Shown here: one piece after another, positions 1-63,775 of the stretch
How the letters are laid out: every line of letters begins with the position of its first letter
How positions within the stretch are numbered: position 1 is the stretch's first letter
Origin: Bacteroidaceae bacterium
GTDB lineage: Bacteria; Bacteroidota; Bacteroidia; Bacteroidales; Bacteroidaceae
Direction: 5' to 3'
Assembly (NCBI GenBank): GCA_017381475.1
Contig: JAFOCD010000081.1
Span: 1,792-65,791, forward strand
Length of the DNA stretch: 64,000 bases
Notes under the pieces: generated by a model
Databases searched by the model: none
The model's input: only the letters and a program-made list of their open reading frames with translations
Told to the model about the DNA's origin: nothing
Made by a program: the position numbers and the translations under genes

Positions 1-1880
1 TGAAGACGCAGCCCCACCCCACCAAAAACAAAACTACGGTTCAGCGAGAAACTATGTTCAAGATAGCCAGGCATGCGGTTGTTTGCCGTGTTCTGCGGCA
101 ACATATAGCGTTCGCCGACAACCGAAAGCAAATAAGAAACATTGACAATGGGGTTTTCGAGTGACATTGTAAAAGAGCCCGAATGCCGCGGCGTGTAGGG
201 GAGCTGGTGGCGATAATTCTTCGCCGAGACATCGGTGACATCCACCGCATACTGGAAGGAGTAGCTTGCATCGAGCATCAGTGCCACCTTTTTAGAGAGA
301 GCAAGGCGCATGGATACCGAAGCATCGGCTCCCCAAATGTCGGCCCTGCCGAAATTCATCATTCGCCATATATACATGGTGGGCAAGGCCACAATCTTGT
401 CGCGTACATTATTATAATATCCATCGGCTGTAAAAGTAAGATTCCTAAAGAAACCGCTACCCGACAGGTAGAGTGTTGCACCGACATTGCATTGCGTTGC
501 CTTCTCGGGCTTTAGACCGACATTTCCCAGGCGCAGATAGTAGAGATCGGCAAATGTAGGAACACGACAGGCATCCTTTACCGATGCACGAACATGCAGA
601 ATATCATTGCCAAAAGGAGCAACAATCACGCCAAATGAGGGCGAAACACGGAAGAAAGACGGCATACTTTCACTACCCTGCACCTCATCAACAACAGATG
701 TCGCGAGCAACGATGCGGTGAACCTGACACGACGCAAATCATAGTCGGCAGCAGCAACCAGCCACGAGGAGAAACGGCGCGGCGCCTTGCTGTTCTCAAA
801 ATTATTCTCGAGCATAGAATACGCAGCGTCGGCCGCAAAGGAAATCCTAAGGTTCTGTAGCGGACGACAGGCAGCAGCCAATGATGCATACATTTCGTTC
901 TGAATATTTATATCCACCTGCTCACCCGAACTATAGTTTGCACTTACTTCGCGATAGCGAGAATAGTTGTAGTCATACTTGAACAAAGCCTGCAGTTCCC
1001 AAAAATCACCGATGGAACATCCGTATCTTGCCTGAGCAAAGACATTCCTGTTCCACAACCTCTCACGGTTCTCCTTATTATACAGGTTGACCGCACCCGG
1101 CAAGCCACGCTCCGATGAATAGCACCCAATCTTCGCATCAAGCATGCCTGCACCGAGGAGCGCATCGGCATTCGCTTCGAGCGAGAAGGCATTGATATCG
1201 CTGTCACGACGCTTCGCGCGTGTAACAAGCCCCGAATTCACCAGCTCAAAAGGATACATTCCGTCACTGCGCAGGTAATTGCCGTTAAAAGAGAGCCCCC
1301 ACTCCCCCGCCGGCTTATATCGATGAAAGAGCGAAGCGCCTGCGTAGCCGAACGAACCACCCTTGAGCTCGATATTTGTCATGGTCTTACCCACCGAGAG
1401 TGTACGCAATGACAAAAGGGTCGAAGACGAATACTCACGCGCACTTCGCATGACATCGTCGCCACCCAAACCCATTGCCAAAGTGACAGCAGCAATATTA
1501 TTCAATGGGAAACGCCCAAGATCGACCACTCCACTCTGGGCGTCGGACACAACCACGCCGTCATAACTGACAGCAGTATGTTTTGCACCCATTCCGCGCA
1601 CCGACACTGTCTTGAGACCACCGACACCACCATAATCGCGCACATTGACACCCGACATGTATTTGAGTACATCGGCTACACCATCATGTCCCAAACGTTC
1701 CATTTCCTCGCATGAAACCTGTTGTACCGGCGCAGCAGATGTAGCAGAGACTGGCAAAACAACCTCAACAGCATCGACCTCGGGGAGGAGATACTGCAAA
1801 GAGTCAAGTTCCTGAGCCGACACATTCGCCACAGAAGCAAGTCCCATAAACGCAAAAAGGACGCCAAAAATACGCTGCAT
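1..1880 (-). CDS. btuB: TonB-dependent outer-membrane receptor, BtuB-like (C-terminus beyond left window edge)
   Basis: The minus-strand frame is open from the ATG (complement of 1878-1880) to position 1. It is absent from the ORF track because no stop lies in the window. My translation starts MQRIFGVLFAFMGLASVANVSAQELDSLQYLLPEVDAVEVV (signal peptide plus TonB-box-like segment). It continues ...GVADVLKYMSGVNVRDYGGVG..., which is a plug-domain motif. A cobalamin riboswitch sits directly upstream. The gene symbol is inferred from that context. Confidence 0.85.
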   Translation of the reverse strand, partial: MQRIFGVLFAFMGLASVANVSAQELDSLQYLLPEVDAVEVVLPVSATSAAPVQQVSCEEMERLGHDGVADVLKYMSGVNVRDYGGVGGLKTVSVRGMGAKHTAVSYDGVVVSDAQSGVVDLGRFPLNNIAAVTLAMGLGGDDVMRSAREYSSSTLLSLRTLSVGKTMTNIELKGGSFGYAGASLFHRYKPAGEWGLSFNGNYLRSDGMYPFELVNSGLVTRAKRRDSDINAFSLEANADALLGAGMLDAKIGCYSSERGLPGAVNLYNKENRERLWNRNVFAQARYGCSIGDFWELQALFKYDYNYSRYREVSANYSSGEQVDINIQNEMYASLAAACRPLQNLRISFAADAAYSMLENNFENSKAPRRFSSWLVAAADYDLRRVRFTASLLATSVVDEVQGSESMPSFFRVSPSFGVIVAPFGNDILHVRASVKDACRVPTFADLYYLRLGNVGLKPEKATQCNVGATLYLSGSGFFRNLTFTADGYYNNVRDKIVALPTMYIWRMMNFGRADIWGADASVSMRLALSKKVALMLDASYSFQYAVDVTDVSAKNYRHQLPYTPRHSGSFTMSLENPIVNVSYLLSVVGERYMLPQNTANNRMPGYLEHSFSLNRSFVFGGVGLRL

Positions 1881-1924
1881 AAACAAACTTTATAAAACCC
1901 TTACCCGGGGTTTGTATAAAACAT

Positions 1925-2095
1925 AATGAATATGGCAGGTTTTCTGACTTGTTCACCCAAGCACCTTCCCACCCCACCGGGGAGCAGTGGCTATTGACCG
2001 CCTGGGCATCAAAGAACTTACAGCTACGGGTATAGTTCCGGACTCACACCGGATTCCCTTTTACTAACCGCCAACGCAAAGCGGCGGTTACACCA
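1925..2095 (-). promoter_or_regulatory. Cobalamin (B12) riboswitch in the 5' leader of the TonB-dependent receptor
   Basis: The minus-strand RNA reads GGUUAGUAAAAGGGAAUCCGGUGUGAGUCCGGAACUAUACCCGUAGCUGUAAG ... AAGUCAGAAAACCUGCC. The last segment (complement of about 1934-1950) matches the B12 box, and the GGGAA/GGUG/GCUG core is typical of the cobalamin riboswitch family. Boundaries are approximate. Confidence 0.85.
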
Positions 2096-2105
2096 TAATC
2101 GTTTG

Positions 2106-2113
2106 CGAAGATA
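2106..2113 (-). promoter_or_regulatory. Bacteroidetes-type -7 promoter box (TATCTTCG on minus strand) for the riboswitch-btuB transcript
   Basis: The plus strand reads CGAAGATA, which is TATCTTCG on the minus strand, just upstream of the riboswitch. The same GCGAAGATA block recurs upstream of rpe (20378-20385), nfo (27090-27097), fhs (47752-47759) and the DUF5103 gene (56316-56323). Confidence 0.6.
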
Positions 2114-2290
2114 AGAATATTATTTGCAAACAGCAACACATGCAAATAGAAAAAGCAAAAACATAAAAGTGAGCTATAATTTTTTATTCCAAGGAGTGTG
2201 CTTTTAGCCCCAAAAACTGCAAATTAAGCAACCGATTTAACTTTTAACATATTTTAAGAAGTACTTATCCTTATTTTAAACAAATGTTAC

Positions 2291-2298
2291 TATTTTTG
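2291..2298 (+). promoter_or_regulatory. -7 promoter box TATTTTTG for the 2333-5423 operon
   Basis: It matches the Bacteroides TAnnTTTG consensus and lies 35 nt upstream of the ATG at 2333. Confidence 0.55.
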
Positions 2299-2332
2299 AA
2301 AAACATTAATAAACTTTATTCAATTTAATATT

Positions 2333-2755
2333 ATGGGATTTTTCAAATCACTACTAGCAGAGATCGCAGGTGATGCCATTGGAGACATTGCCGGAGATGC
2401 CGTAGGCAGCGTTGCAGAAAAAGCAGCAAGTAAAGCCACAGAAAAAGCTGTTGACCACCTTATGTCTGACAACAATAAGCAGCAGACAGAACCAGCCCCA
2501 CAGCAACAGGCCACACAGCAACAGGCCACACAGCAACAGGCCACACCTGCTCCACAACAGCAGACAAACAGCGGAATGTTATATGACCCAGCTCTCGAAA
2601 ACCTCATTAACGTAGCATTAGCGGACGGTGAGCTGACTGAAAAAGAAAAGCAAATTCTCTTTAGGAAAGCAGAGGCAGCAGGTATAGACCTTGACGAATT
2701 TGAGATGGTGCTTGAAGCAAGGCTTTTTGAGAAAAAGCAAGAGATGCAAGCATAA
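2333..2755 (+). CDS. TerB-like domain protein with N-terminal amphipathic helix and Gln-rich repeat linker
   Basis: ORF of 140 aa. The N-terminus is MGFFKSLLAEIAGDAIGDIAGDAVGSV (amphipathic). A QQQAT x3 linker follows. The C-terminal segment ALADGELTEKEKQILFRKAEAAGIDLDEFE resembles the TerB / DjlA-N family motif. It is first in a tightly packed same-strand gene set. Confidence 0.65.
   Translation: MGFFKSLLAEIAGDAIGDIAGDAVGSVAEKAASKATEKAVDHLMSDNNKQQTEPAPQQQATQQQATQQQATPAPQQQTNSGMLYDPALENLINVALADGELTEKEKQILFRKAEAAGIDLDEFEMVLEARLFEKKQEMQA
2501..2545 (+). repeat. Perfect 15-nt tandem repeat x3 (cagcaacaggccaca), encoding QQQAT x3
   Basis: Direct reading gives units at 2501-2515, 2516-2530 and 2531-2545. 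All three are identical and in frame within the 2333-2755 CDS. Confidence 0.95.
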
Positions 2756-2809
2756 GCCCAGACACAGGCACTCCAGAACGTCCAAATCCAGCAAGCTCAG
2801 GCTGCTGCA

Positions 2810-3316
2810 ATGGCACCAAGACCAACCAAAAGCGGCGAAATTAGCAAATGTCCTGGCTGTGGTGCAATGATTGAGGCATTCTCGACACACTGCCCACAGT
2901 GCGGTTACGAGTTCAACAACAGAGAGGCTTCTGCAAGTTTTACAAGACTCATGAACGAACTCAAGGCAGCCGAAGCAACCAGAACAACAGCTTCTGACAT
3001 CAGGAGTGCAATGTTTGGCCAAGCATTCGGCGACCCTGTTACAAACAAGAAAAAAACAATCATCAGCAACTTCCCAATTCCAAATACAAAAGCAGACATT
3101 CTTGAATTCGTGACCATGGCAGCCCCACTTGCTGTTAAAAAAGGTGGTTTCATGACACAGAACCACCCCGACAACAAGTTACACAATGACCTTGTCGGTG
3201 CTTGGCAAGACAAACTTAAACAAGTTGTTATGAAAGCTCGATTCAGCATGAAAGAAGACAAGAAAACACTTGCGGAAATTGAAGATATTGTACGCCAGTG
3301 CGGTGTCAAGATTTAA
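2810..3316 (+). CDS. Zinc-ribbon domain protein (YdjG-like position in an SPFH operon)
   Basis: ORF of 168 aa with CPGCGAMIEAFSTHCPQCGYEF (CxxC-N11-CxxC zinc ribbon) at the N-terminus. It is in the same frame as the preceding ORF, separated only by one TAA and 18 sense codons. Confidence 0.7.
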   Translation: MAPRPTKSGEISKCPGCGAMIEAFSTHCPQCGYEFNNREASASFTRLMNELKAAEATRTTASDIRSAMFGQAFGDPVTNKKKTIISNFPIPNTKADILEFVTMAAPLAVKKGGFMTQNHPDNKLHNDLVGAWQDKLKQVVMKARFSMKEDKKTLAEIEDIVRQCGVKI

Positions 3317-3340
3317 AAACAACAAAATTAACACATAATT

Positions 3341-4693
3341 ATGGGATTATTTAGCAAAGGAAAAAGCGGAGGCATGATGAATGTCATCCGTTGTGACCAA
3401 GAGGAATACCTTGTTTGGAAATGGAGACCTGAAGGACAGGAAGCTAACAGCACATCACGTGAAAACGCTATCCGTTATGGCAGTAGCCTGAGAGTAAAAG
3501 ATGGCGAAGTAGCAGTTTTCGTGTACAAGCAGAAAGACGGCAGTTGCCAGGATTTCATTCTTGGACCACATGACGAAACAATCAAGACTGCAAACTTCCC
3601 CGTACTTTCAAGCATTGTTGGACTTGCATTCGGTGGAGAGTCACCATTCCAGGCCGAAATTTACTTCATCAACCTGCAGGGAAACAACCAGATCCGTTTC
3701 GGTGTTCCATACTTTGATGTATTCGACCCACGCCTACCAGACCATGGTATTCCAATGGCTGTACGCGGTACTATCACATTCAACATCACTGATTATCGCA
3801 ACTTTATCAAACTTAACCGTCTTGTAAATTTTGACCTTGACGATTTCCAGAAGCAGGTAAAGGACGCTGTAGTGAAATATGTCAAGGGTGTTGTGATGAA
3901 TGTACCACAGAGCATGGGCATACCAGCGGTGCAGATGGAAAGACAAATTCTTGAAATCAATGACAAGGTACGCGAGCACCTCAAGCCACGCTTGGAAGAG
4001 GATTTTGGTGTAAATATGAAAAACCTTGATATCGCGGCACTTGAAATTGACAAAGAAAGCCCATACTATCAGGAGCTTCGTCAGTTGACAGCGGGCAATA
4101 CTGCACGCACATTGAACGCACAGACAGACATCAACATCAAGAACATGCAGGACATGCAGTCTATCAACGCAGAGAACATGGCGGAGACTATGCGTATCCA
4201 GCGTGAGGAGGCACAGAGAGCACAGCGTTTGCAGACCGAGACCAACTTCATTGGTGCTCACCAGGCAAACTTACAGGCCGATGTACTGAAAACCGGTGCA
4301 CAAAGTCTTGGGCAGATGGGAAATATTGGTGGTGCTGGTGGCGGCATGAACCCCGCAGCAATGATGACCGGTATGATGATGGGAAGTGCGATGGGCCAGC
4401 AAATGAGTGGCATGATGAACAATATGGGCCAGCAGATGCAACAATCCATGAACACTCCACCACCAATGCCAAACATCTCATACTATGTTTCGGTAAACGG
4501 TGCACAGAGCGGACCGTTCAACATGCAGCAGTTGGCACAGATGGCACAAAGCGGACAGGTGAACACCCAGACATACGTTTGGAAACAAGGTATGCCAAAC
4601 TGGGAAATGGCAGGCAATATCGCTGAGCTTCAGACAATTTTTATGCCTCAGATGCCAGGTTCAATGCCTCCTCCACCAATGCCAGGAATGTAA
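3341..4693 (+). CDS. SPFH / Band_7_1 (YdjI-like, 'virion core protein'-type) protein with Met/Gln/Gly-rich linker and C-terminal GYF_2 domain
   Basis: ORF of 450 aa. The N-terminal 230 aa (MGLFSKGK...VIRCDQEEYLVWKW...IRYGSSLRVKDGEVAVFVYKQ...FPVLSSIVGL...PFQAEIYFINL...AVRGTITFNITDY) follow the Band_7_1 pattern. A coiled-coil-like segment and a low-complexity M/Q/G stretch follow. The C-terminal YYVSVNGAQSGPFNMQQLAQMAQSGQVNTQTYVWKQGMPNWEMAGNI is GYF_2-like. Confidence 0.8.
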   Translation: MGLFSKGKSGGMMNVIRCDQEEYLVWKWRPEGQEANSTSRENAIRYGSSLRVKDGEVAVFVYKQKDGSCQDFILGPHDETIKTANFPVLSSIVGLAFGGESPFQAEIYFINLQGNNQIRFGVPYFDVFDPRLPDHGIPMAVRGTITFNITDYRNFIKLNRLVNFDLDDFQKQVKDAVVKYVKGVVMNVPQSMGIPAVQMERQILEINDKVREHLKPRLEEDFGVNMKNLDIAALEIDKESPYYQELRQLTAGNTARTLNAQTDINIKNMQDMQSINAENMAETMRIQREEAQRAQRLQTETNFIGAHQANLQADVLKTGAQSLGQMGNIGGAGGGMNPAAMMTGMMMGSAMGQQMSGMMNNMGQQMQQSMNTPPPMPNISYYVSVNGAQSGPFNMQQLAQMAQSGQVNTQTYVWKQGMPNWEMAGNIAELQTIFMPQMPGSMPPPPMPGM

Positions 4694-4719
4694 AATAACA
4701 ACATCAAACAAAATGCAAT

Positions 4720-5070
4720 ATGAACAATAACGATTTTTATTCGATGGACCGTCTTATCGAGTTCGGTCTTGGGGTCAGTATTGCAAAACAGATGGTAAAC
4801 TGTATGAACCAGGGTATGCAGAACATGCATATCCCCGGTTCAATGCAGAACGTGCAGCCCCAGCAACCATCAATTTTCTATGTCGCAATCGACGGAAAGC
4901 AAGCAGGTCCGTTCAACGAGAGTGAGATAATACAACTTGTGAGCCAAAAGAAAATCAACAAGAATACACTTGCCTGGACACCCGGAATGAACGGGTGGCA
5001 AGAAATTGAGAATGTCCCGGCGATTCTGAAGCTTGTCGCTTTGGCTCCTCCACCATTAAAAACTGAATAA
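4720..5070 (+). CDS. GYF_2 (DUF4339) domain protein
   Basis: ORF of 116 aa. The segment IFYVAIDGKQAGPFNESEIIQLVSQKKINKNTLAWTPGMNGWQEIENVP matches the GYF_2 pattern and is paralogous to the C-terminus of the preceding protein. Confidence 0.7.
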   Translation: MNNNDFYSMDRLIEFGLGVSIAKQMVNCMNQGMQNMHIPGSMQNVQPQQPSIFYVAIDGKQAGPFNESEIIQLVSQKKINKNTLAWTPGMNGWQEIENVPAILKLVALAPPPLKTE

Positions 5071-5072
5071 AG

Positions 5073-5423
5073 ATGAAATTCTCAGCATTTCCAGCATTAT
5101 TGGCTATCATATTGTCTGCTGTGCTCAGCTATCTGACCTTTTACCTTAATGTAACAGATGAAAATTGTTGGGTAATCACAATTGGCACATTCATCGGTTT
5201 AGTATCAACACTGATTCCGATTATGTCTTTGAGTACCCCCAACGACAGAGCTGCAACAAACATAAAGGCTCTAAACAGCATTATGCTCATTGCAATGATT
5301 ATATCAACATGTATTTTCACCTTTGCAGGTGTTAATGCACCATTCTATGTAATAATAACAAGCATTCTAGTTGTTTTCAGTCTATATTACACTTGGAAGA
5401 TTTTGAAGGCAGATATAGATTAA
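5073..5423 (+). CDS. Small integral membrane protein (about 4 TM), last gene of the SPFH operon
   Basis: ORF of 116 aa with four hydrophobic stretches. It starts 2 nt after the stop of the previous gene and is followed by a terminator. Confidence 0.65.
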   Translation: MKFSAFPALLAIILSAVLSYLTFYLNVTDENCWVITIGTFIGLVSTLIPIMSLSTPNDRAATNIKALNSIMLIAMIISTCIFTFAGVNAPFYVIITSILVVFSLYYTWKILKADID

Positions 5424-5443
5424 ACATATGCATATATAAAAAT

Positions 5444-5471
5444 AAAGCATGCATCAATTGATGCATGCTTT
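5444..5471. terminator. Bidirectional hairpin terminator between convergent genes
   Basis: aaagcatgcatcaattgatgcatgcttt is a perfect palindrome flanked by A/T runs. It lies between the end of the 5073-5423 gene and the end of rplI. Confidence 0.8.
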
Positions 5472-5496
5472 ATTTTATAGTATATTTACTGATTAA

Positions 5497-5943
5497 TTAT
5501 TCTGCCTCAGCAACTACTGTGAAAGGAACCTTAACGGCAACCTCCTTATGCAATCTAACAGTAGCCTCGTAAGAACCGATCTCCTTAACTGCAGCAACTG
5601 TAATAGTCTTGCGGTCGATCTCGAGACCGAGCTTTGCAAGCTCCTCGGCAATCTGGATTGCACCAACAGAACCGTAAACAACGCCTGTTGCGCTTACCTT
5701 TGTAGCGATTGTCAAAGAAACACCCTCGAACTTAGCTGCAAGAGCCTCAGCGTCAGCCTTGATCTTAGCCAACTTGTGAGCGCGCTGCTTCAAGTTCTCA
5801 GCAAGTACCTTCTTTGCAGACTCGCTAGCGATAACTGCCTTGCCTGTTGGAATCAAATAATTACGGCCATAACCGTCCTTTACCTTAACGATATCGTCTT
5901 TGTAACCCAAGTTGATTACATCTTCTTTCAAAATAAGCTCCAT
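5497..5943 (-). CDS. rplI: 50S ribosomal protein L9
   Basis: 148 aa. MELILKEDVINLGYKDDIVKVKDGYGRNYLIPTGKAV is the canonical L9 N-terminus. It is part of an rpsF-rpsR-rplI operon. Confidence 0.95.
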   Translation of the reverse strand: MELILKEDVINLGYKDDIVKVKDGYGRNYLIPTGKAVIASESAKKVLAENLKQRAHKLAKIKADAEALAAKFEGVSLTIATKVSATGVVYGSVGAIQIAEELAKLGLEIDRKTITVAAVKEIGSYEATVRLHKEVAVKVPFTVVAEAE

Positions 5944-56378: not shown

Positions 56379-57227
56379 ATGAAAAACATATTCACCACCA
56401 TTATCCTGACACTGCTGCCCATAGCAGCAATGCCACAAAAAGCAATATATACAAGTGCTGACAGCATAAGGATTGAACAAATCCTGCATGGTGCAAATAA
56501 CGCAATGCCATCCACCACCGGCGAGCGCATCATATCCATTGCCCATGAATTCATTGGCGAAAAATATGTTGGTGGAACGCTTGAACATGGTGGCGAGGAA
56601 CCGCTGTTCATAAGCAGCACGGAACTCGACTGCACTACATTCGTGGAACTTGTTCTTGCAATTGCAAAAACCGCCAATGACGGAAGCCTGCAGTTCACTG
56701 ATGTATGCAGCAACCTTGAAACCATACGCTACCGCAACGGCAGGAATAATGGATACACAAGCCGACTGCACTACATCAGTTGGTGGATAACGGACAGCGC
56801 AAAAACAGGGGTTATAGAAGAGATAACATCACAAATCAGCAACAAGAAGCAACAGCTGGGACTCAACTTCATGAGTACCCATCCAAGCAACTACCCAATA
56901 CTCGCTGAGTATCCCGAATATATAAAAGAGATTGAACAGTTGGAAACACCCTACCGTGACGTTGAAGCCCACTACATTCCCAAAGAAGATATTGACTACG
57001 CGGGACACAAGAATATAAAAGCCGGGGATATCATCGCAATAACGACATCTATCCCCGGGCTCGATGTAACCCACATGGGCTTTGCCTATTATACAAACGA
57101 TGTGCTATATCTTATGCATGCATCCAGTGGAAAAGGAATGGTCATTAAGGATAGCATACCGTTGCGCGACTATCTTGCAAACAACAAGCGCCATACAGGC
57201 ATCAGGGTATTCAGGACCTGTTTTTAA
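56379..57227 (+). CDS. DUF1460-like (N-acetylmuramoyl-L-alanine amidase-like) secreted protein
   Basis: 282 aa with a signal peptide. GEKYVGGTLEHGGEEPLFISSTELDCTTFVELVLA resembles the DUF1460 core. The call is from memory only. Confidence 0.5.
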   Translation: MKNIFTTIILTLLPIAAMPQKAIYTSADSIRIEQILHGANNAMPSTTGERIISIAHEFIGEKYVGGTLEHGGEEPLFISSTELDCTTFVELVLAIAKTANDGSLQFTDVCSNLETIRYRNGRNNGYTSRLHYISWWITDSAKTGVIEEITSQISNKKQQLGLNFMSTHPSNYPILAEYPEYIKEIEQLETPYRDVEAHYIPKEDIDYAGHKNIKAGDIIAITTSIPGLDVTHMGFAYYTNDVLYLMHASSGKGMVIKDSIPLRDYLANNKRHTGIRVFRTCF

Positions 57228-57229
57228 TT

Positions 57230-59425
57230 CTACCACCAGGAATATCCTCTACAGCATGAGTACCTGCGCGACAACGGGTCATGATCATACAGATAATCGC
57301 ATGACCCTTTTACAAGTTCGCCCATATCCGTATTTGGGTACTTTGTGGCAACCGTCTCAAAATTGTACAGTTCGTAATGCATCTCAGCAGCCACCTCATC
57401 GTCCGTCACAATATCAAAGGCTGTCTGCAACAACTGCTCGACCCTGGTCGTCGCCGCCTGCGTATATTCATCACGTACCCAATCCCTCTTCTCGCATACC
57501 TGTCCATAATATACTTCACCGCAATAGTATTGCGTGAGAGGCCAACAGAAATCGAACGAGCTCCTTATTCCTATTGCCAGTTTCATCATAAGCCGCCCCT
57601 TACGGTTCGGATCGGCAACGCCGGCAATCTCTTGCTCCAAAGAATGCATCTCACGGGCAAAATCATACTTGAAATCGTCCTTATGTCCAATATACTTCCT
57701 GGCTGCGCAGAAGGGGTCATATTCAATATAAAGATTATGGTGGTGCTTGTATGCGTCGGAAATGCGTCCAAAATGTTCCAAAGCATCGCCATAACGCATA
57801 TTGCGCAGATACTGAGTTCCAAGTATATCATTCAAATAATCACTATTGGTGTAACCACGTTCATTGAGGAACTTGTCAAAACCTGATTCAGAATGCCATA
57901 CATTATTTACATATTCGGCAACCACATCGACACCCAACGTATCAATCATTTCAAAAAAATGGTTAGAATAATCGTATCCATTGAAATATTCCGCAGAATA
58001 TCTGTACGCTGACATTGAATATATATCATCCGAATCATAGTAATCGCATACTACCCTATCTACAAGTCCAAGTTGTCTATTATCTGCCATATTCGCAAGT
58101 TGTAAAGCCCTTGTAGTCTTGCCCTCCTTAATCATTCTTGGGCAAACCTCTGCAAGTAAAATCTTGCGCATTGCCTTGTTCCAATACTCCGGGTTATCGG
58201 TATGTTCGGGCACTACTCCTTCGCGGACATCCTCAGTCATACTCTCACAGATTTTTGCATCCAGCCATTCCAATTGGTGATACAATTTATTCTCATAAGC
58301 CGAATTGTATGGTTGCTGTTGGGCGTCAATATATATCCTGAGAACCTTTATCGATTCATCAATAAAATCCGAAGACTTACTTTTCTCGGCCCTATCCAAC
58401 AATTTCGAAGCATTTGTCAAATCACCGGCTTGTTCATACACAAAAGCCGCCGCATAGTACCACATTGCCGGATTTTCGGTTTCACGATGTACTGCTGCTG
58501 CAAGACATATGGAAATCACTCTTCTATCCTGCTCTGTCATCCTTTTCTCATACCCCCAGTTATTTGTCCAGTCACAGCCCGGGACGAACTCTGAATCAAG
58601 TTCATAAAATCTTATGTATGACTGCAATGTCTCTAGTACATATTTGCTGTTCGGCGCATATTTACACACCATCTCAAGAGCATCAACTGTTGAAATCTCT
58701 TCATTTCCCCGTCCAAGACAGAAGAGCATTGAGTTCACATCGCCTAAACGCGCGAAATATTCCAAAGCCTTTTCCGAGTGATTCAAACGGTATTCAGCAC
58801 CGGCTATATACGGCATAATCATCTGACGCATCAGATTTTCCTCGGGCAAGAGAGCCACCTCATCCTCCCACAGTCTAACACATTCTTCAAACTTCGACAT
58901 TGAGAACAGAGCCCTCACAGCCTGCAATAGATATCTATCCCTCAACCTCTCATCGGTCTGCGCCAGAGCCTTTTCGGCAACCTCCTCTATCGTCATATCC
59001 ACGCCTGTTTTCATTGTAGGATAATACCAACGTGAGTTCAGTTTAATACGTATATATTCATTGGTCTTGGCCAGGAGTAAAAAATCAAGGATAGCTGTAT
59101 CTTTTTTAGTAATCCACTCAATGAAACTGTTGTCATAAGACACTTTCGTATTGTCGGCAATAGTCCTAAACTCATCCCATGACATCCTGTACACGACATC
59201 ATATATATCATCTACCGGAATATCATCAGAGGTCAGTTTTTGCCACTCCTCACAGTTTCTTGCCGAATTCGGATAAGCACCGTTCGCAGCCACCCCTGAT
59301 TGAGGTTCACATATACGGAACAAATGATATCCGCTTGGCGTATACCAATGAGGGCCGCAGGCACATGCATCATAAACCACTGTCAGCAACACAACATTAA
59401 TAAGAAAGTATCTTAGAGATTTCAT
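57230..59425 (-). CDS. Secreted helical-repeat (TPR-like) protein, 731 aa, unknown function
   Basis: The start is trimmed to MKSLRYFLINVVLLTVVYDACACG (ATG at 59425). This overlaps the upstream gene by 29 nt. The body is rich in helix-pair segments, and I recognise no catalytic motif. Confidence 0.6.
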   Translation of the reverse strand: MKSLRYFLINVVLLTVVYDACACGPHWYTPSGYHLFRICEPQSGVAANGAYPNSARNCEEWQKLTSDDIPVDDIYDVVYRMSWDEFRTIADNTKVSYDNSFIEWITKKDTAILDFLLLAKTNEYIRIKLNSRWYYPTMKTGVDMTIEEVAEKALAQTDERLRDRYLLQAVRALFSMSKFEECVRLWEDEVALLPEENLMRQMIMPYIAGAEYRLNHSEKALEYFARLGDVNSMLFCLGRGNEEISTVDALEMVCKYAPNSKYVLETLQSYIRFYELDSEFVPGCDWTNNWGYEKRMTEQDRRVISICLAAAVHRETENPAMWYYAAAFVYEQAGDLTNASKLLDRAEKSKSSDFIDESIKVLRIYIDAQQQPYNSAYENKLYHQLEWLDAKICESMTEDVREGVVPEHTDNPEYWNKAMRKILLAEVCPRMIKEGKTTRALQLANMADNRQLGLVDRVVCDYYDSDDIYSMSAYRYSAEYFNGYDYSNHFFEMIDTLGVDVVAEYVNNVWHSESGFDKFLNERGYTNSDYLNDILGTQYLRNMRYGDALEHFGRISDAYKHHHNLYIEYDPFCAARKYIGHKDDFKYDFAREMHSLEQEIAGVADPNRKGRLMMKLAIGIRSSFDFCWPLTQYYCGEVYYGQVCEKRDWVRDEYTQAATTRVEQLLQTAFDIVTDDEVAAEMHYELYNFETVATKYPNTDMGELVKGSCDYLYDHDPLSRRYSCCRGYSWW

Positions 59426-60374
59426 CGTCGGTATAATTTTTAAATTGTGAATAATCCAAATGGTATAGAATATTTCCCCTTGCAGGCTTGCCAATTTTCT
59501 GTTCAACAAGTTCCTTGACACCAAGTATCGTGTATATGTTTGGGCGTTCGTTACGGATATATTCATTGCCGGAGATTTCACGGCTACCATATGGTACAAT
59601 CGACACAAACTTATTGTCTGCAAACTTTACACCCCAACTAAAGATAGGGTAGGCATAATCAAGCGGCATTGGATACTCCGTCGGCTTGACATATGTTTCA
59701 ACCACATCATAACTGAGGATTGAATTTCCGGTACTCGGGTTTTTTAGTGAACCTGTATTATACAGCATGAGCACACCACAATCGGCCGGCGGAGGGGTTT
59801 CGCGCAACTGATGCAACCTGATGGTTATACTCAGCGAAATACCCTTTTCGTGCAACAAATCCTTCACCGCGCCACAAAGTTTGTTATAACTATCCTTTGT
59901 TGTACCTGTCCAGTCACAATCAAGTTGTAGCTCATTAATTTTGCCACACTCATTATAAGAGCACATCGCCAGCATACGTTCAACAATGAGTGGAGCCATT
60001 GCAGACTCATAACCAGCCATTTCCCTCAATGCCTCTATTGTGATATAAGTAACCGGCACTATCTCCACTCCATCCGGAATAGGAGAAATGAATTGCGTGG
60101 TTGCGTTTGGAACCACATCCGTTACACCGTTAAGGAAATCGTGTTCCGGCACAACATCGAACATACGCAAATAGATGCGCTTGATATCATGTTCTTGCAG
60201 GAATGCCGTTTCAGCAGAATCCAAATCAAAGACAGTTCTCCAGTAATAGATTGAATTCACTTTTTCCGGTTCGTCAGCATGCGCCTCGGACTGAGGAGCA
60301 GCTTGATGTCCGCACGAGGACAAAGAGGCAACATATGCAAATGCCACAAGGATCTTAAAGAAATATTTCATCAT
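59397..60374 (-). CDS. Lipoprotein, 325 aa, unknown function (possible TIM-barrel glycosidase-like fold)
   Basis: MMKYFFKILVAFAYVASLSSCG carries the lipobox LSSC. An alternating beta/alpha-like pattern is present, and the segment ELQLDCDWTG is reminiscent of the GH18 DxDxE strand but has Thr in place of Glu. Confidence 0.6.
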   Translation of the reverse strand: MMKYFFKILVAFAYVASLSSCGHQAAPQSEAHADEPEKVNSIYYWRTVFDLDSAETAFLQEHDIKRIYLRMFDVVPEHDFLNGVTDVVPNATTQFISPIPDGVEIVPVTYITIEALREMAGYESAMAPLIVERMLAMCSYNECGKINELQLDCDWTGTTKDSYNKLCGAVKDLLHEKGISLSITIRLHQLRETPPPADCGVLMLYNTGSLKNPSTGNSILSYDVVETYVKPTEYPMPLDYAYPIFSWGVKFADNKFVSIVPYGSREISGNEYIRNERPNIYTILGVKELVEQKIGKPARGNILYHLDYSQFKNYTDDEISKILSY

Positions 60375-60441
60375 ACAATTTTTATTTACCTATACAAATT
60401 TCAACAAAAAAAATCGTACAGCCGAATGTTTTTGTCCCGAC

Positions 60442-60473
60442 TGTACGAAATATACTCCAGAGTGTATGAAATG
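60442..60473 (-). promoter_or_regulatory. Operator B: direct repeats TGTACGAAATA-N10-TGTATGAAATG (21-bp phasing) upstream of the lipoprotein operon
   Basis: Direct reading places the repeats at 60442-60452 and 60463-60473. The proximal repeat lies 40 bp from a -7-like box (plus-strand CAAATTTC at 60395-60402), which is the same geometry as operator A. Confidence 0.65.
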
Positions 60474-60497: not shown

Positions 60498-61436
60498 CTA
60501 TTTTCTGCGCCAAACAATGTAACTTGTATTCTTGGGCATCCTTCGCCTGCCCTTGTAATAGTTATCCTCTCCGAACTCATGCACCACGCCTTCGCCATCT
60601 ACAGCCCATCCATAGGCCGACGAGCCGACAAGATAGACAGCCTGGTCCACGCCCAAGTCTACCAGAGCCTGCGAAAAGTCATGGAACGACTCCTTGGAAC
60701 CAGTCTCTATCATAAAGATTTCACCGTCACGATCACATATTGACCTCCTGATAGCCTTGCCTTTTGGTTCGTTCTCAACCACTTTGCCATCACTGACCAA
60801 AGGATATTGGCGGAAGAAATAACCGCCGTGCCCGGTAGCCTGTTCAAACAACGGTGAGTTTTCGGCAACGCCAATGGTCACAACACCATTTATTGAGGCA
60901 CAGTATCCTTTCTTGGATATTCCCCAAGCAAGAGGCTCTCCATTAAGCACAAACGCCCCGACAATACCACCGTTGTCAGCTCTCACATCGGCAGCTTGTG
61001 CCGCATACACAACCGTGGTGTCATTTTTATCCATTCTGCCAATATGCAAAGACATCTCGGCATTATGCGGTATATACAATTTAAGCGGAACATCGTTTAT
61101 TAATGTATCCTTTATTTCAACAAACCCCTTCACCAAGGAATCGACACTATCACCGAAATATTGCTTATTCAACATGTCAGTTTCCATTTCTGCAGACATT
61201 GCAGGTTCTTCCGGTTCAAACAGAGCCGGCTCCACCTCTTTTGAAACATCAACAGTCTTTGGAGGCACCGTCGTATTTTCCTTTCCACCAGCGGCAAGGA
61301 AAAATATGACAGTTCCGACAACAGCAAGAATAACAGCAATTACAATTATCTTTCCTTTGCGAGACGAAGTCTTTTTATAGGGCGTATCACCAATTACGCG
61401 AATCTGGTCATCCCTTATATCTTCATATTCCTTCAT
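60498..61436 (-). CDS. Single-pass membrane protein with periplasmic DUF2233 / phosphodiester-glycosidase-like domain
   Basis: 312 aa. There is a cytoplasmic N-tail of about 30 aa and a TM helix (IIVIAVILAVVGTVIFFLAAG). The C-terminal RRSICDRDGEIFMIETGSKESFHDFSQALVDLGVDQAVYLVGSSAYGW resembles the NAGPA-family core (R.aiG...dG.l.lv..dg...G.sl.ela..l..lG...AlnLDGGGS) but has a degenerate last motif. Confidence 0.55.
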   Translation of the reverse strand: MKEYEDIRDDQIRVIGDTPYKKTSSRKGKIIVIAVILAVVGTVIFFLAAGGKENTTVPPKTVDVSKEVEPALFEPEEPAMSAEMETDMLNKQYFGDSVDSLVKGFVEIKDTLINDVPLKLYIPHNAEMSLHIGRMDKNDTTVVYAAQAADVRADNGGIVGAFVLNGEPLAWGISKKGYCASINGVVTIGVAENSPLFEQATGHGGYFFRQYPLVSDGKVVENEPKGKAIRRSICDRDGEIFMIETGSKESFHDFSQALVDLGVDQAVYLVGSSAYGWAVDGEGVVHEFGEDNYYKGRRRMPKNTSYIVWRRK

Positions 61437-61438
61437 AA

Positions 61439-61801
61439 CTACCTGATCTCCTTTTCTATAAATTCCTTCAACTCCTTCAAGGCCTCTTTAGATGCAGTGA
61501 CGGCATGACTAAATGACTGCACATCCGAGAGCACCAATTTTTGTTTAGGAATATTGATATAACTAATGTAAGAACGATTTATAATCAAGCTCTTACCAAT
61601 ACGGATAAAGATATTTCCCTCGCTACCGAGCTGTGAGGATATCATCTTCTCTATTTGCCCCAACTGATATGACAGCACATGTTTTTCATTATCGGCCAGC
61701 ACCAGTGTCGAGTAGTTTCCGTCGGCCAAAATATAGACAACCCTGTCCGGCGCAACGCGCACCAGATCAATTGTAGTCGATATTATCAGCTGTTTCTTCA
61801 T
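61439..61801 (-). CDS. Stand-alone LytTR DNA-binding domain protein (no receiver domain)
   Basis: 120 aa. VRVAPDRVVYILADGNYSTLVLADNEKHVLSYQLGQIEKMISS...FIRIGKSLIINRSYISYI follows the LytTR pattern. Its stop is 2 nt from the start of the membrane-protein gene. Confidence 0.8.
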   Translation of the reverse strand: MKKQLIISTTIDLVRVAPDRVVYILADGNYSTLVLADNEKHVLSYQLGQIEKMISSQLGSEGNIFIRIGKSLIINRSYISYINIPKQKLVLSDVQSFSHAVTASKEALKELKEFIEKEIR

Positions 61802-61825: not shown

Positions 61826-61833
61826 CAAATTTA
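61826..61833 (-). promoter_or_regulatory. -7 promoter box (TAAATTTG on minus strand) of the LytTR operon
   Basis: The plus strand reads CAAATTTA, 25 nt upstream of the LytTR ATG. A possible -33 TTTG element (plus-strand CAAA) lies at 61853-61856. Confidence 0.55.
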
Positions 61834-61872
61834 GGAGAGTTGACGCACACTGCAAAACCATTTGCCTGGCAA

Positions 61873-61904
61873 TGTATGAAATAGTCTTCATAGTGTATGA
61901 AATA
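61873..61904 (-). promoter_or_regulatory. Operator A: direct repeats TGTATGAAATA-N10-TGTATGAAATA (21-bp phasing) upstream of the LytTR operon
   Basis: Direct reading places the repeats at 61873-61883 and 61894-61904. They are identical 11-mers, and the proximal one is 40 bp from the -7 box. Confidence 0.65.
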
Positions 61905-61928: not shown

Positions 61929-62873
61929 CTATTCCTTATTCTTATATAGACGTTTGCGCCCCTTTTCACGAATTCTCTCACGCTCTTCATAGCCGGCACG
62001 GGTACGTTTCCAGCGGTTATGCGTCCATAACCACAACTCAGGATTCTCCTTAATTTCTTTTTCGAGCAGTTCATAATAGCGATTCGTAGGTTCAAATTGA
62101 GCCATCTTTGAAGCATCCTCGGCAAAAAGTTCAAAGTGTGCCGTATAATAACCGCGTTTAACCCGCTTCATTCTAACAAAGAAGAGAGCTGCTTGTGTGC
62201 GTTGGGCTATTTTCTCAGTTCCAGTAAACACAGGAGTGTCGCGATGCAGGAAATCAACCCAATGATTGATAGACTCCCAAGTAGGCACTTGATCTGCTAC
62301 AAAACCAATAAGATACTTTTTGTTCTCTTTTGTTATCTGCACTATTCGACGCAACGTATTGGCCATTGTTATTGATTCTGCCCCGAACTGATCACGCATT
62401 TTCTTCATCAAGCGGTCAAAGAACTTGTTTTCGAGCGGATGATAGATATCGCCTACAACCAAATCCTTTTCATCAAAATACAAACCGAGAGATGTCACAT
62501 ATTCCCAATTGAAGAAATGTCCCATGTAGCAGACACACGAGCGACCTTCGGCAACAACACGATGAGCATCCTCAAGACCTGTAATCACCATTCGCTTGCG
62601 TATTTTCTTCTCGCTCATTCCATAATACTTTATCATCTCCACAAACCAGTCGCAGAGCGAAGAATAGAATTTCCTCTCAATCTTCTTTATCTCTTTCAAG
62701 CTCTTTTCCGGGAATGACTTGAGCAGATTTTCACGCACTATTCTACGACGATATCGTACCAGATAATATACGACAAAATACAAGAAATCCGATATGAGAT
62801 ACAGGATGAAAAATGGAAGCTTGTTCAGCACGAACAGCACCGAAACCGCAATGTAGTAGAGAATCTTTTTCAT
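61929..62873 (-). CDS. Lipid A biosynthesis (LpxL/HtrB-type) lysophospholipid acyltransferase family protein
   Basis: 314 aa with an N-terminal TM. YLVRYRRRIVRENLLKSFPEKS and GHFFNWEY (the HX4D/E-type region) are typical of late acyltransferases. Confidence 0.7.
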   Translation of the reverse strand: MKKILYYIAVSVLFVLNKLPFFILYLISDFLYFVVYYLVRYRRRIVRENLLKSFPEKSLKEIKKIERKFYSSLCDWFVEMIKYYGMSEKKIRKRMVITGLEDAHRVVAEGRSCVCYMGHFFNWEYVTSLGLYFDEKDLVVGDIYHPLENKFFDRLMKKMRDQFGAESITMANTLRRIVQITKENKKYLIGFVADQVPTWESINHWVDFLHRDTPVFTGTEKIAQRTQAALFFVRMKRVKRGYYTAHFELFAEDASKMAQFEPTNRYYELLEKEIKENPELWLWTHNRWKRTRAGYEERERIREKGRKRLYKNKE

Positions 62874-63067: not shown

Positions 63068-63775
63068 TTATTCCAATGTTCCGTTTTCTGCCGATTCAAT
63101 CATTTCAGCACTGGCATACATAAAGATTTCAACGCGACGGTTCTCAGCACGACCGGCAGCAGTAGCGTTGTCAGCTACAGGCTGTTTTGATCCAAAACCC
63201 TCCACACTCTTAATCTGCTCCTCTGAAACACCCTTAGAGAGCAGGTACTCTGCAACAGCCTTGGCACGGTTTACAGAGAGGGGATTGTTGATCATGTCGT
63301 TACCGGTTGAATCTGTATGTCCATATACCACGACATCAGCATCGCTATACTCAACAAGCACCTTAGCAAACTCTGTAAGATTCTCCTTTGCAACCTTGTT
63401 CAAAGTATACTTATTTGTCTCAAAAAGCACACCAGAATCAAAAGTAACCTTCACTGCAGTAAGATTATTTGCATCTGTAATTGTCTGCACAGTCGCATTC
63501 TCAACCTGAGCGGCAGCCTCGGCTGCATTATCCATTCTCTTACCGATTAGTGCACCAGTTCCTGCTCCAACAGCTGTACCTACAGCCGCACCCACAGCTG
63601 TACCTACAGCTGTATTGCCAGTATATTTACCAATGAGAGCACCAATGAGAGCACCACCAGCTGCACCACTGGCTCCACCAATCACACTACCCTTCGCCAA
63701 GTTACTCCAAGTTCCACAACTTGATAAGATAAGCGCAGAACAAAGTACCGCGCAAACAGTCTTTACAGATTTCAT
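63068..63775 (-). CDS. OmpA-family lipoprotein with glycine-zipper N-domain
   Basis: 235 aa with the lipobox LSSCG. A Gly-zipper is present (GGASGAAGGALIGALIG...GTAVGAAVGTAVGAGTGALIG). The C-terminal OmpA-like domain shows VVVYGHTDSTG...NNPLSVNRAKAV...NRRVEI. Confidence 0.85.
   Translation of the reverse strand: MKSVKTVCAVLCSALILSSCGTWSNLAKGSVIGGASGAAGGALIGALIGKYTGNTAVGTAVGAAVGTAVGAGTGALIGKRMDNAAEAAAQVENATVQTITDANNLTAVKVTFDSGVLFETNKYTLNKVAKENLTEFAKVLVEYSDADVVVYGHTDSTGNDMINNPLSVNRAKAVAEYLLSKGVSEEQIKSVEGFGSKQPVADNATAAGRAENRRVEIFMYASAEMIESAENGTLE

Follow-up and report, generated by a model that had tools for sequence, protein, structure and literature searches.

A candidate LytTR regulatory system of gut Bacteroidales that pairs a receiver-less LytTR protein with a membrane-anchored NAGPA-fold partner

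We describe a two-gene locus in a 64,000-nt stretch of DNA from a Bacteroidaceae bacterium (assembly GCA_017381475.1, contig JAFOCD010000081.1, positions 1,792 to 65,791 of the forward strand; ‘the window’ from here on), and propose that it encodes a LytTR regulatory system (LRS) of a new type: a receiver-less LytTR regulator and, encoded directly downstream, a membrane-anchored anti-regulator. We put the probability of this reading at roughly 0.6. The parallel is with the LRS of Streptococcus mutans – HdrRM, BrsRM and three others (Zou et al. 2018, PMC6193735) – in which, as here, a soluble receiver-less LytTR protein is encoded first and a co-transcribed membrane protein second, with like repeats upstream of the controlled genes. 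An earlier reading of this DNA, made from the letters without database searches (the sequence-only reading), had already likened the pair to such a regulator/membrane-protein module; the order of the two genes and the 9-bp repeats that we find upstream of both promoters of the locus bear the analogy out. Every LRS hallmark set out by Zou et al. 2018 that can be judged from sequence appears to be present, combined with a type of partner not described before. As the sequence-only reading had supposed, the configuration seems to be new to the literature: no paper describing such a pairing turned up in full-text searches that combined LytTR with DUF2233, NAGPA or phosphodiester glycosidase.

A conserved pair of a LytTR gene and a membrane-protein gene

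The locus consists of two open reading frames (ORFs) on the minus strand:

61439..61801, minus strand: gene of the receiver-less LytTR regulator, 120 amino acids (aa)
60498..61436, minus strand: gene of a 312-aa type II membrane protein, the proposed anti-regulator and sensor (Pfam, homologues, AlphaFold2, Foldseek)

Both ORFs are present in full, and the LytTR stop codon TAG (61439–61441) is followed by TT and then by the ATG at 61436, so that the 2-nt gap noticed in the sequence-only reading can be read off directly. The Pfam LytTR model matches the 120-aa protein with 39.4 bits (cutoff 22.6) over residues 13–115 and without any other domain; since the match spans nearly the whole chain, there is no receiver domain, and the protein is a LytTR domain only, just as had been claimed. 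A sequence search with the LytTR protein against the PDB gave nothing useful.

The membrane-protein family is large, with 4250 database matches and 519 representatives at the 50% identity clustering level (E <= 1e-3). Where its members are named, the source is a Bacteroidales metagenome-assembled genome with a label such as Muribaculaceae, Paludibacteraceae or Alistipes, and the window DNA itself is found in bovine and other animal gut metagenomes. We fetched 117 related loci, of which 111 contained enough upstream DNA. As judged by tblastn, a LytTR gene of ~120 aa lies directly upstream of the membrane-protein gene in 110 of the 111, and the one locus without a tblastn match carries in the same place a 122-aa gene with a faint Pfam LytTR match. 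A metagenome scan with a diverse alignment yielded only close relatives (55–79% identity), and distant members were examined one by one: the LytTR gene is adjacent in all five distant representatives, which share 36–39% identity with the membrane protein of the window. The pair is thus syntenic among relatives, as the sequence-only reading would have it. Between the LytTR stop codon and the membrane-protein start there are -4 to +7 nt, most commonly 2 nt (78 unique loci), and we infer that the two genes form one translationally coupled message.

A 420-aa database protein (P0092) that looked like a fusion of the LytTR and membrane proteins was rejected, since the apparent fusion is the product of a frameshift in one assembly, near LytTR residue 80. 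A reading of the locus as a defence system was likewise dropped, because NCBIfam and PADLOC gave no meaningful match either for the LytTR/membrane pair or for the genes downstream.

Direct repeats at two promoters

Upstream of the LytTR gene (promoter P1) and between the membrane-protein gene and the next gene (promoter P2), the locus carries the following elements:

61873..61902, minus strand: P1 direct repeats TTTCATACA-N12-TTTCATACA, proposed LytTR site for autoregulation (pattern match in the window)
61826..61856, minus strand: P1 core promoter, with -33 element TTTG (61853–61856), 19-nt spacer and -7 box TAAATTTG (61826–61833) (consensus match)
60442..60471, minus strand: P2 direct repeats TTTCATACA-N12-TTTCGTACA, proposed LytTR site for the downstream operon (second pattern match in the window)
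60406..60448, minus strand: RNA hairpin (60414–60448) and run of eight T (60406–60413), intrinsic terminator of the two-gene operon (folding, covariation)
60395..60402, minus strand: P2 -7 box GAAATTTG, 39 nt past repeat 2, as in P1

For LytTR regulators and for all LRS operons, sites made of 9-bp repeats with a 12-bp spacer have been reported (PMC6193735), and direct repeats of 9 bp placed 11–13 bp apart immediately upstream of the operon promoter, by which LRS are recognised, are found here as well. The pattern TTTCRTACA-N12-TTTCRTACA, searched with at most two mismatches, matches twice in the 64 kb, both times exactly, where 0.02 matches are expected. In nearly all related loci the P1 repeats precede the LytTR start codon by ~95 bp. 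Of 107 loci, 86 have the P2 repeats downstream of the membrane-protein gene, and when insertions separate this gene from the next one, the repeats move with the latter. At both promoters the half-sites are kept across relatives and the 12-nt spacer drifts.

The P1 core matches the Bacteroidetes promoter consensus TTTG / TAnnTTTG, which is established and was used in Table 3 of PMC6193735. The placement of the repeats relative to this promoter is rigid: the distance from the end of repeat 2 to the -7 box is exactly 39 nt in 50 of 62 unique loci at P1 and in 29 of 48 sequences at P2, the latter by a strict pattern. The repeats are 21 bp apart and centred near -56 and -77, which places them upstream of the -33 element, a position where activators bind; the -33 region of P2 is poor, as expected for an activator-dependent promoter.

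Two variations on the P1 arrangement were seen among relatives. One locus (L033) has, in place of the usual pair, three tandem half-sites (ATTTCATACAT) with a spacing of 21 bp, ~60–115 nt upstream of the LytTR start. In another (L013, positions 1440–5630; also L085 and L088), a P1-like repeat is located ~4.2 kb upstream of the LytTR gene, and the stretch between this distal repeat and LytTR contains inserted genes for a DUF1848 protein, a UvrD-like helicase and a TerB-domain protein; the insertion may be a gene cassette.

A terminator built into the second promoter

The hairpin at P2, with a 12-bp stem and an 11-nt loop, lies between repeat 2 and the -7 box, where it overlaps repeat 2 and fills the spacer of the promoter. 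A terminator scanner missed it, its loop limit being 8 nt as against the 11 nt of this loop. Across 46 distinct sequences, 95.3% of the cells pair, whereas sliding the partner columns leaves no more than 45% paired; changes on both sides are seen in six of the 12 pairs. G-U wobbles are frequent in the same sequences, which points to selection of the hairpin in the sense-strand RNA. By folding and covariation, the hairpin and the T-run are an intrinsic terminator, predicted to close the two-gene operon and to insulate the downstream genes from read-through. The overlap of its left arm with repeat 2 also explains why P2 repeat 2 reads almost invariably TTTCGTACAG.

Repeats, hairpin, T-run and -7 box travel as a unit with the downstream gene past insertions (L027, L023, L038), and the same repeat/hairpin/-7 layout is present in a relative at 37% identity (L113). 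The arrangement thus looks like a fusion of a terminator and an activator-dependent promoter into a single compact block.

A periplasmic NAGPA-fold domain that has lost the catalytic aspartate

The membrane protein has three features outside the cytoplasm that matter for its proposed role:

61293..61361, minus strand: single transmembrane (TM) helix, residues 26–48 (AlphaFold2 helix 26–49 with a predicted local distance difference test score, pLDDT, of ~90–94; median hydrophobicity 2.9 across relatives)
60501..61151, minus strand: periplasmic NAGPA/DUF2233-fold domain, residues ~96–312 (pLDDT mostly >95; Foldseek E ~1e-9)
60618..60632, minus strand: L-V-G-S-S, residues 269–273, degenerate counterpart of the catalytic DGGGS loop (HMMER alignment to LDGGS of 5H3K)

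The match of the membrane protein to Pfam NAGPA (PF09992) is borderline, with 24.3 bits and E 4e-5 at a gathering score of 25 (PF09992 is also a precomputed match on several homologues at 63–67% identity to it), and the fold was therefore tested directly by structure prediction; a sequence search against the PDB gave a short match to 5H3K only. An AlphaFold2 run on 40 close homologues (63–84% identity) was unusable (pLDDT 44.9), and the model that we use was built from a 125-sequence alignment that includes diverse 50%-cluster representatives. Its mean pLDDT is 88.6, with most of residues ~95–312 above 95 and a block near 290–300 at 82. The layout is that of a disordered N-terminus, a TM helix, a low-confidence linker of ~45 aa and a compact alpha/beta domain of ~215 aa. 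The cytoplasmic segment comprises residues 1–25 and is basic immediately before the helix, which indicates an N-in orientation. Of the topology given by the sequence-only reading, the single TM helix stands, and the sizes need correcting: the cytoplasmic tail is ~25 aa long rather than ~30, and the folded outer domain ~215 aa rather than ~250.

Searched against the PDB with Foldseek, the model returns as its top 13 matches exclusively NAGPA catalytic domains (6PKY, 6PKI, 6PKG, 6PKU and 6U11), the DUF2233 protein 3OHG from Bacteroides ovatus, or 5H3K, all with probability 1.0 and E from 1e-9 to 3e-7; the next match is about four orders of magnitude weaker. Template-modelling scores (TM-scores) normalised to the target are 0.47–0.57 for the NAGPA and 3OHG chains and 0.27 for the longer 5H3K. 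At the level of the predicted structure this confirms the NAGPA/DUF2233 fold of the outer domain, and with it the resemblance that had been picked up from the letters. The outer domain is the best-conserved part of the membrane protein.

The fold has been retained without its catalytic residue. In human NAGPA, the subject of a 2026 structure paper, the DGGGS loop is described as invariant from bacteria to humans, and substitutions D286A, G288A, G289A and S290A each abolish activity, D286 being the catalytic Asp (PMC13474241). In the window protein, residues 268–273 (Y-L-V-G-S-S) align to LNLDGGSS of 5H3K with Val at the position of the Asp, and the family profile aligns ‘AIYLVGSES’ with ‘ALNLDGGSS’ of 5H3K (HMMER). 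Among 125 family members the Asp column contains Val in 101, Thr in eight, Ile in seven and Asp in none; the degeneracy of the LDGGGS-type motif noticed in the sequence-only reading is thus a property of the family. In the model, the L-V-G-S-S segment forms a loop right after beta-strand 265–269, as in NAGPA. Since the fold is kept and the DGGGS Asp is lost, the family is predicted not to be an active phosphodiester glycosidase. Some of its members are named ‘phosphodiester glycosidase family protein’ at NCBI, a name that is probably misleading because the catalytic Asp is absent. A set of polar residues is near-invariant (D150, R152, D154, N155, K175, R209, Q210, Y211 and R230) and points to a conserved binding surface on the outer domain.

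The periplasmic linker of the window protein contains an E-P-A-L-F-E-P motif (residues 67–76, window 61209–61238). In NAGPA, a propeptide plugs the active-site groove, and by analogy the motif may act as a tethered plug. F-[ED]-P or Y-E-P is found in the linkers of 27 of 125 relatives, as compared to 2.2 expected from shuffled linkers, and is confined to a sub-group; as a family-wide propeptide-like plug the ‘F-E-P’ motif was accordingly rejected.

A conserved peptide on the cytoplasmic side

The sole conserved cytoplasmic element of the family is an N-terminal motif, D-I-x-D-[DN]-[EQ]-I-R-[IV]-[IL]-G, that starts at about residue 6–10. In the window it reads:

61389..61421, minus strand: D-I-R-D-D-Q-I-R-V-I-G, residues 6–16, proposed LytTR-binding peptide (conservation in relatives)

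In the 125 relatives, I7 is conserved in 104, D9 in 107, I12 in 102 and R13 in 99; the strict pattern is matched by 98 of 139 full-length representatives, the remainder being mostly near-matches. Between motif and TM helix lies a linker of 8–155 aa with no conserved sequence and predicted to be disordered. The AlphaFold2 confidence for the motif on its own is low, as expected of a peptide that folds upon binding a partner. Read most simply, the peptide would bind the LytTR protein encoded by the coupled gene. The two most divergent LytTR proteins (L116 and L028) go together with the two most divergent motifs (DDKFEVAG and EEPIRVVE), a weak but consistent sign of co-divergence that would fit binding of the peptide to LytTR.

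Genes behind the second promoter

In the window, P2 is followed by two genes:

59397..60374, minus strand: first controlled gene, a 325-aa predicted lipoprotein (ORF behind P2)
57230..59425, minus strand: second controlled gene, product secreted, ~731 aa, one TPR match (ORF, Pfam)

A Pfam scan of 20 homologues of the lipoprotein gave no consistent family. The second gene is contained in a mechanically called ORF of 797 aa (57230–59623, minus strand), and its start is probably the internal ATG at 59425 (MKSLRYFL..., resembling a signal peptide); matches in relatives begin at about residues 45–66 of the 797-aa ORF (tblastn), and with this start the gene overlaps the lipoprotein gene upstream of it by 29 nt.

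For 85 loci we could read which gene stands first behind P2. It scores as a lipoprotein type in 39, a few of these actually being CreD, and encodes a bacterial alpha-2-macroglobulin of ~1815 aa, with bMG3, bMG5, bMG6, bait-region and bMG10 domains, in 38; the other eight encode further envelope proteins, namely VWA proteins (one then followed by CreD), a WG-repeat protein, small lipoproteins and a TPR protein. All of these types are located in the envelope or secreted. Alpha-2-macroglobulin is regarded as a periplasmic protease trap, which suggests an envelope-defence response; that the system controls it in about half of the relatives speaks for a role in cell-envelope defence in gut Bacteroidales. 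The system thus probably turns on envelope-protecting genes in these bacteria.

In a relative at 38% identity (L112, positions 2214–3200), the downstream gene encodes a 328-aa protein that matches PliI weakly (E 9e-4, short of the Pfam cutoff). PliI is a periplasmic inhibitor of I-type lysozyme, and the match, if real, fits the theme of envelope defence.

Proposed mechanism and alternatives

In the mechanism that we propose, the 120-aa LytTR protein would activate transcription by binding, probably as a dimer, to the 9-bp direct repeats of the two promoters: P1 would drive the LytTR and membrane-protein genes as one message ended by the hairpin terminator, and P2 would drive envelope proteins that differ between genomes. 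At rest, the membrane protein would tether LytTR at the inner membrane via the N-terminal D-I-x-D-D-E-I-R-I-I-G peptide, and the positive feedback loop at P1 would be held off because regulator and inhibitor are made together. The receptor would be the periplasmic, catalytically disabled NAGPA-fold domain, its ligand most plausibly a sugar-phosphate or an envelope glycan containing N-acetylglucosamine, or else a sign of envelope damage. The length range and predicted disorder of the cytoplasmic linker make proteolytic release likelier than allostery: the periplasmic signal would remove the inhibitor by destruction or cleavage, as happens with anti-sigma factors, rather than by a conformational relay. 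LytTR so released would amplify its own operon and switch on P2.

Several points weigh against this reading. That the membrane protein inhibits rather than activates is taken by analogy from HdrRM and BrsRM, with the conserved cytoplasmic motif as indirect support. The membrane protein has no match in Pfam to DUF2154, the domain found in HdrM, and no homology to any of the five S. mutans inhibitor types; as its only Pfam match is the weak one to NAGPA, the system would be of a new type, comparable to the ‘putative novel LRS’ of PMC6193735. The P1 repeats end 16 nt upstream of the -33 TTTG, as compared to ~10 nt typical of LRS. Given its invariant polar residues, the outer domain may have some other catalytic activity. 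Behind P2, the 325-aa lipoprotein has no match in Pfam, NCBIfam, the PDB or PADLOC, and the ~731-aa TPR protein gave nothing useful in a PDB sequence search and, apart from its one TPR match, no meaningful match to a family. RNA data for the locus amount to just two short contigs, one of them from a run that is possibly not RNA, and are too little for transcript mapping.

Three other accounts of the pair deserve weighing. The most credible of them, in our view still unlikely, makes the membrane protein a positive partner, a membrane co-sensor that activates or stabilises LytTR on signal. The conserved pairing, the gene coupling and the N-terminal motif speak for a partnership and not for its direction, and one-to-one co-expression would be as fitting for an obligate complex as for an inhibitor. 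What tips the balance towards inhibition is that the partner inhibits in every characterised LytTR-only system that has one (HdrM and BrsM, PMC6193735; DanI), and that chromosomal promoters would be hard to reach for an activator tethered to the membrane by a flexible linker of up to 155 aa. Slightly harder to credit is an account without any regulatory interaction, by which LytTR acts autonomously and the membrane protein is merely its first target, a periplasmic glycan-binding or glycan-processing protein. The NCBI name carried by some members and the fact that conservation is highest in the outer domain are what one would expect on this account, but the catalytic Asp is lost throughout the family, an enzyme has no evident need for a conserved cytoplasmic N-terminal motif, and the near-universal adjacency of -4 to +7 nt, kept down to 36% identity, is tighter than is usual for a regulator and its target, the more so as the other targets vary freely.

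Receiver-less LytTR repressors exist, BlpS being a LytTR-only protein, and the third account, which strikes us as improbable, has LytTR bound to the repeats as a repressor of this kind, with the membrane protein relieving repression by pulling it off the DNA. It draws on the overlap of the -33 region with the right arm of the hairpin, an inverted partial copy of P2 repeat 2. This copy is, however, accounted for by the covariation of an RNA hairpin with G-U pairs, and at both promoters the repeats lie wholly upstream of -33, their distance from the -7 box being fixed at 39 nt, which is the geometry of an activator; the poor -33 region of P2, too, is what an activator-dependent promoter would be expected to have. 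We therefore favour the LytTR regulator with a membrane-anchored anti-regulator.

A bolder version of the anti-regulator reading we offer only tentatively and would not expect to hold in full: the dead NAGPA-fold domain as the receptor of an unrecognised class of inner-membrane signalling that would detect a sugar-phosphate or an envelope glycan bearing N-acetylglucosamine, or else an envelope breach, and in which LytTR is freed by regulated proteolysis and turns on interchangeable envelope-defence genes (alpha-2-macroglobulin, CreD). If true, such a class would be a LytTR-based functional counterpart of extracytoplasmic function (ECF) sigma/anti-sigma signalling, widespread in uncultured gut Bacteroidales. 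To our knowledge, stress signalling in these bacteria is poorly known outside ECF sigma factors.

Relation to known systems

The locus differs from the S. mutans LRS in its partner, which here has one TM helix and a large folded periplasmic NAGPA-like domain, in its repeat (TTTCRTACA as compared to ACCNCTTAN), in its Bacteroidetes -33/-7 promoter with the repeats set 16 nt from -33, and in its Gram-negative Bacteroidales host. LRS have, as far as we know, been characterised almost only in S. mutans, and we know of none whose natural signal has been established; a large folded outer domain of known fold offers a concrete handle for finding a ligand.

Closer in host are the ‘LRS-like’ operons of Bacteroides (Btheta7330_RS19920/RS19915 and Bovatus_RS21370/RS21375; PMC6193735), which come from the same order, combine a LytTR protein with a membrane protein and have direct repeats upstream of a promoter of the TTTG / TAnnTTTG type (PMC6193735). 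In these, however, the gene order is the reverse, the first gene encoding a membrane protein with NfeD and DUF2154 domains; their LytTR protein has TM segments of its own, and the repeats are 11 bp long with an 11-bp spacer (PMC6193735). The window, by contrast, has a soluble regulator whose gene comes first and a partner of NAGPA fold. What DanRI of uropathogenic E. coli shares with our locus is a LytTR-only protein (~122 aa) in a Gram-negative host that is antagonised by the product of an adjacent gene, but DanI is predicted to have a zinc-finger domain, each gene has a promoter of its own, the two lying 139 bp apart, and autoregulation was not found (bioRxiv 10.1101/2025.06.10.658900).

In its proposed logic the system resembles ECF sigma/anti-sigma pairs (sigma-E/RseA and the FecI/FecR type): a factor and a single-pass membrane antagonist that would bind it through a cytoplasmic N-terminus and sense in the periplasm, with positive autoregulation and, likely, release by proteolysis. 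The difference is that LytTR would be a DNA-binding activator and not a sigma factor, and neither protein is homologous to its counterpart. With NAGPA/DUF2233 proteins (6PKU, 6PKY, 3OHG, 5H3K) the outer domain shares a three-subdomain alpha/beta fold; it departs from them in that the invariant DGGGS loop reads V-G-S/G-x in this family, and in carrying a TM anchor and a cytoplasmic motif on its N-terminal side, with a LytTR gene next to its own. If our reading is true, a glycosidase fold that has lost its catalytic residue has been recruited for signalling, that is, a pseudoenzyme serves as a sensor.

Neighbouring genes

The wider surroundings of the locus contain, by Pfam, three further envelope-related genes:

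56379..57227, plus strand: AmiA-like amidase
61929..62873, minus strand: LpxL-type lipid A acyltransferase
63068..63775, minus strand: OmpA-family lipoprotein with glycine zippers

This amidase/acyltransferase/OmpA-family neighbourhood is common only to the closest relative (L029), which places these genes outside the conserved module.

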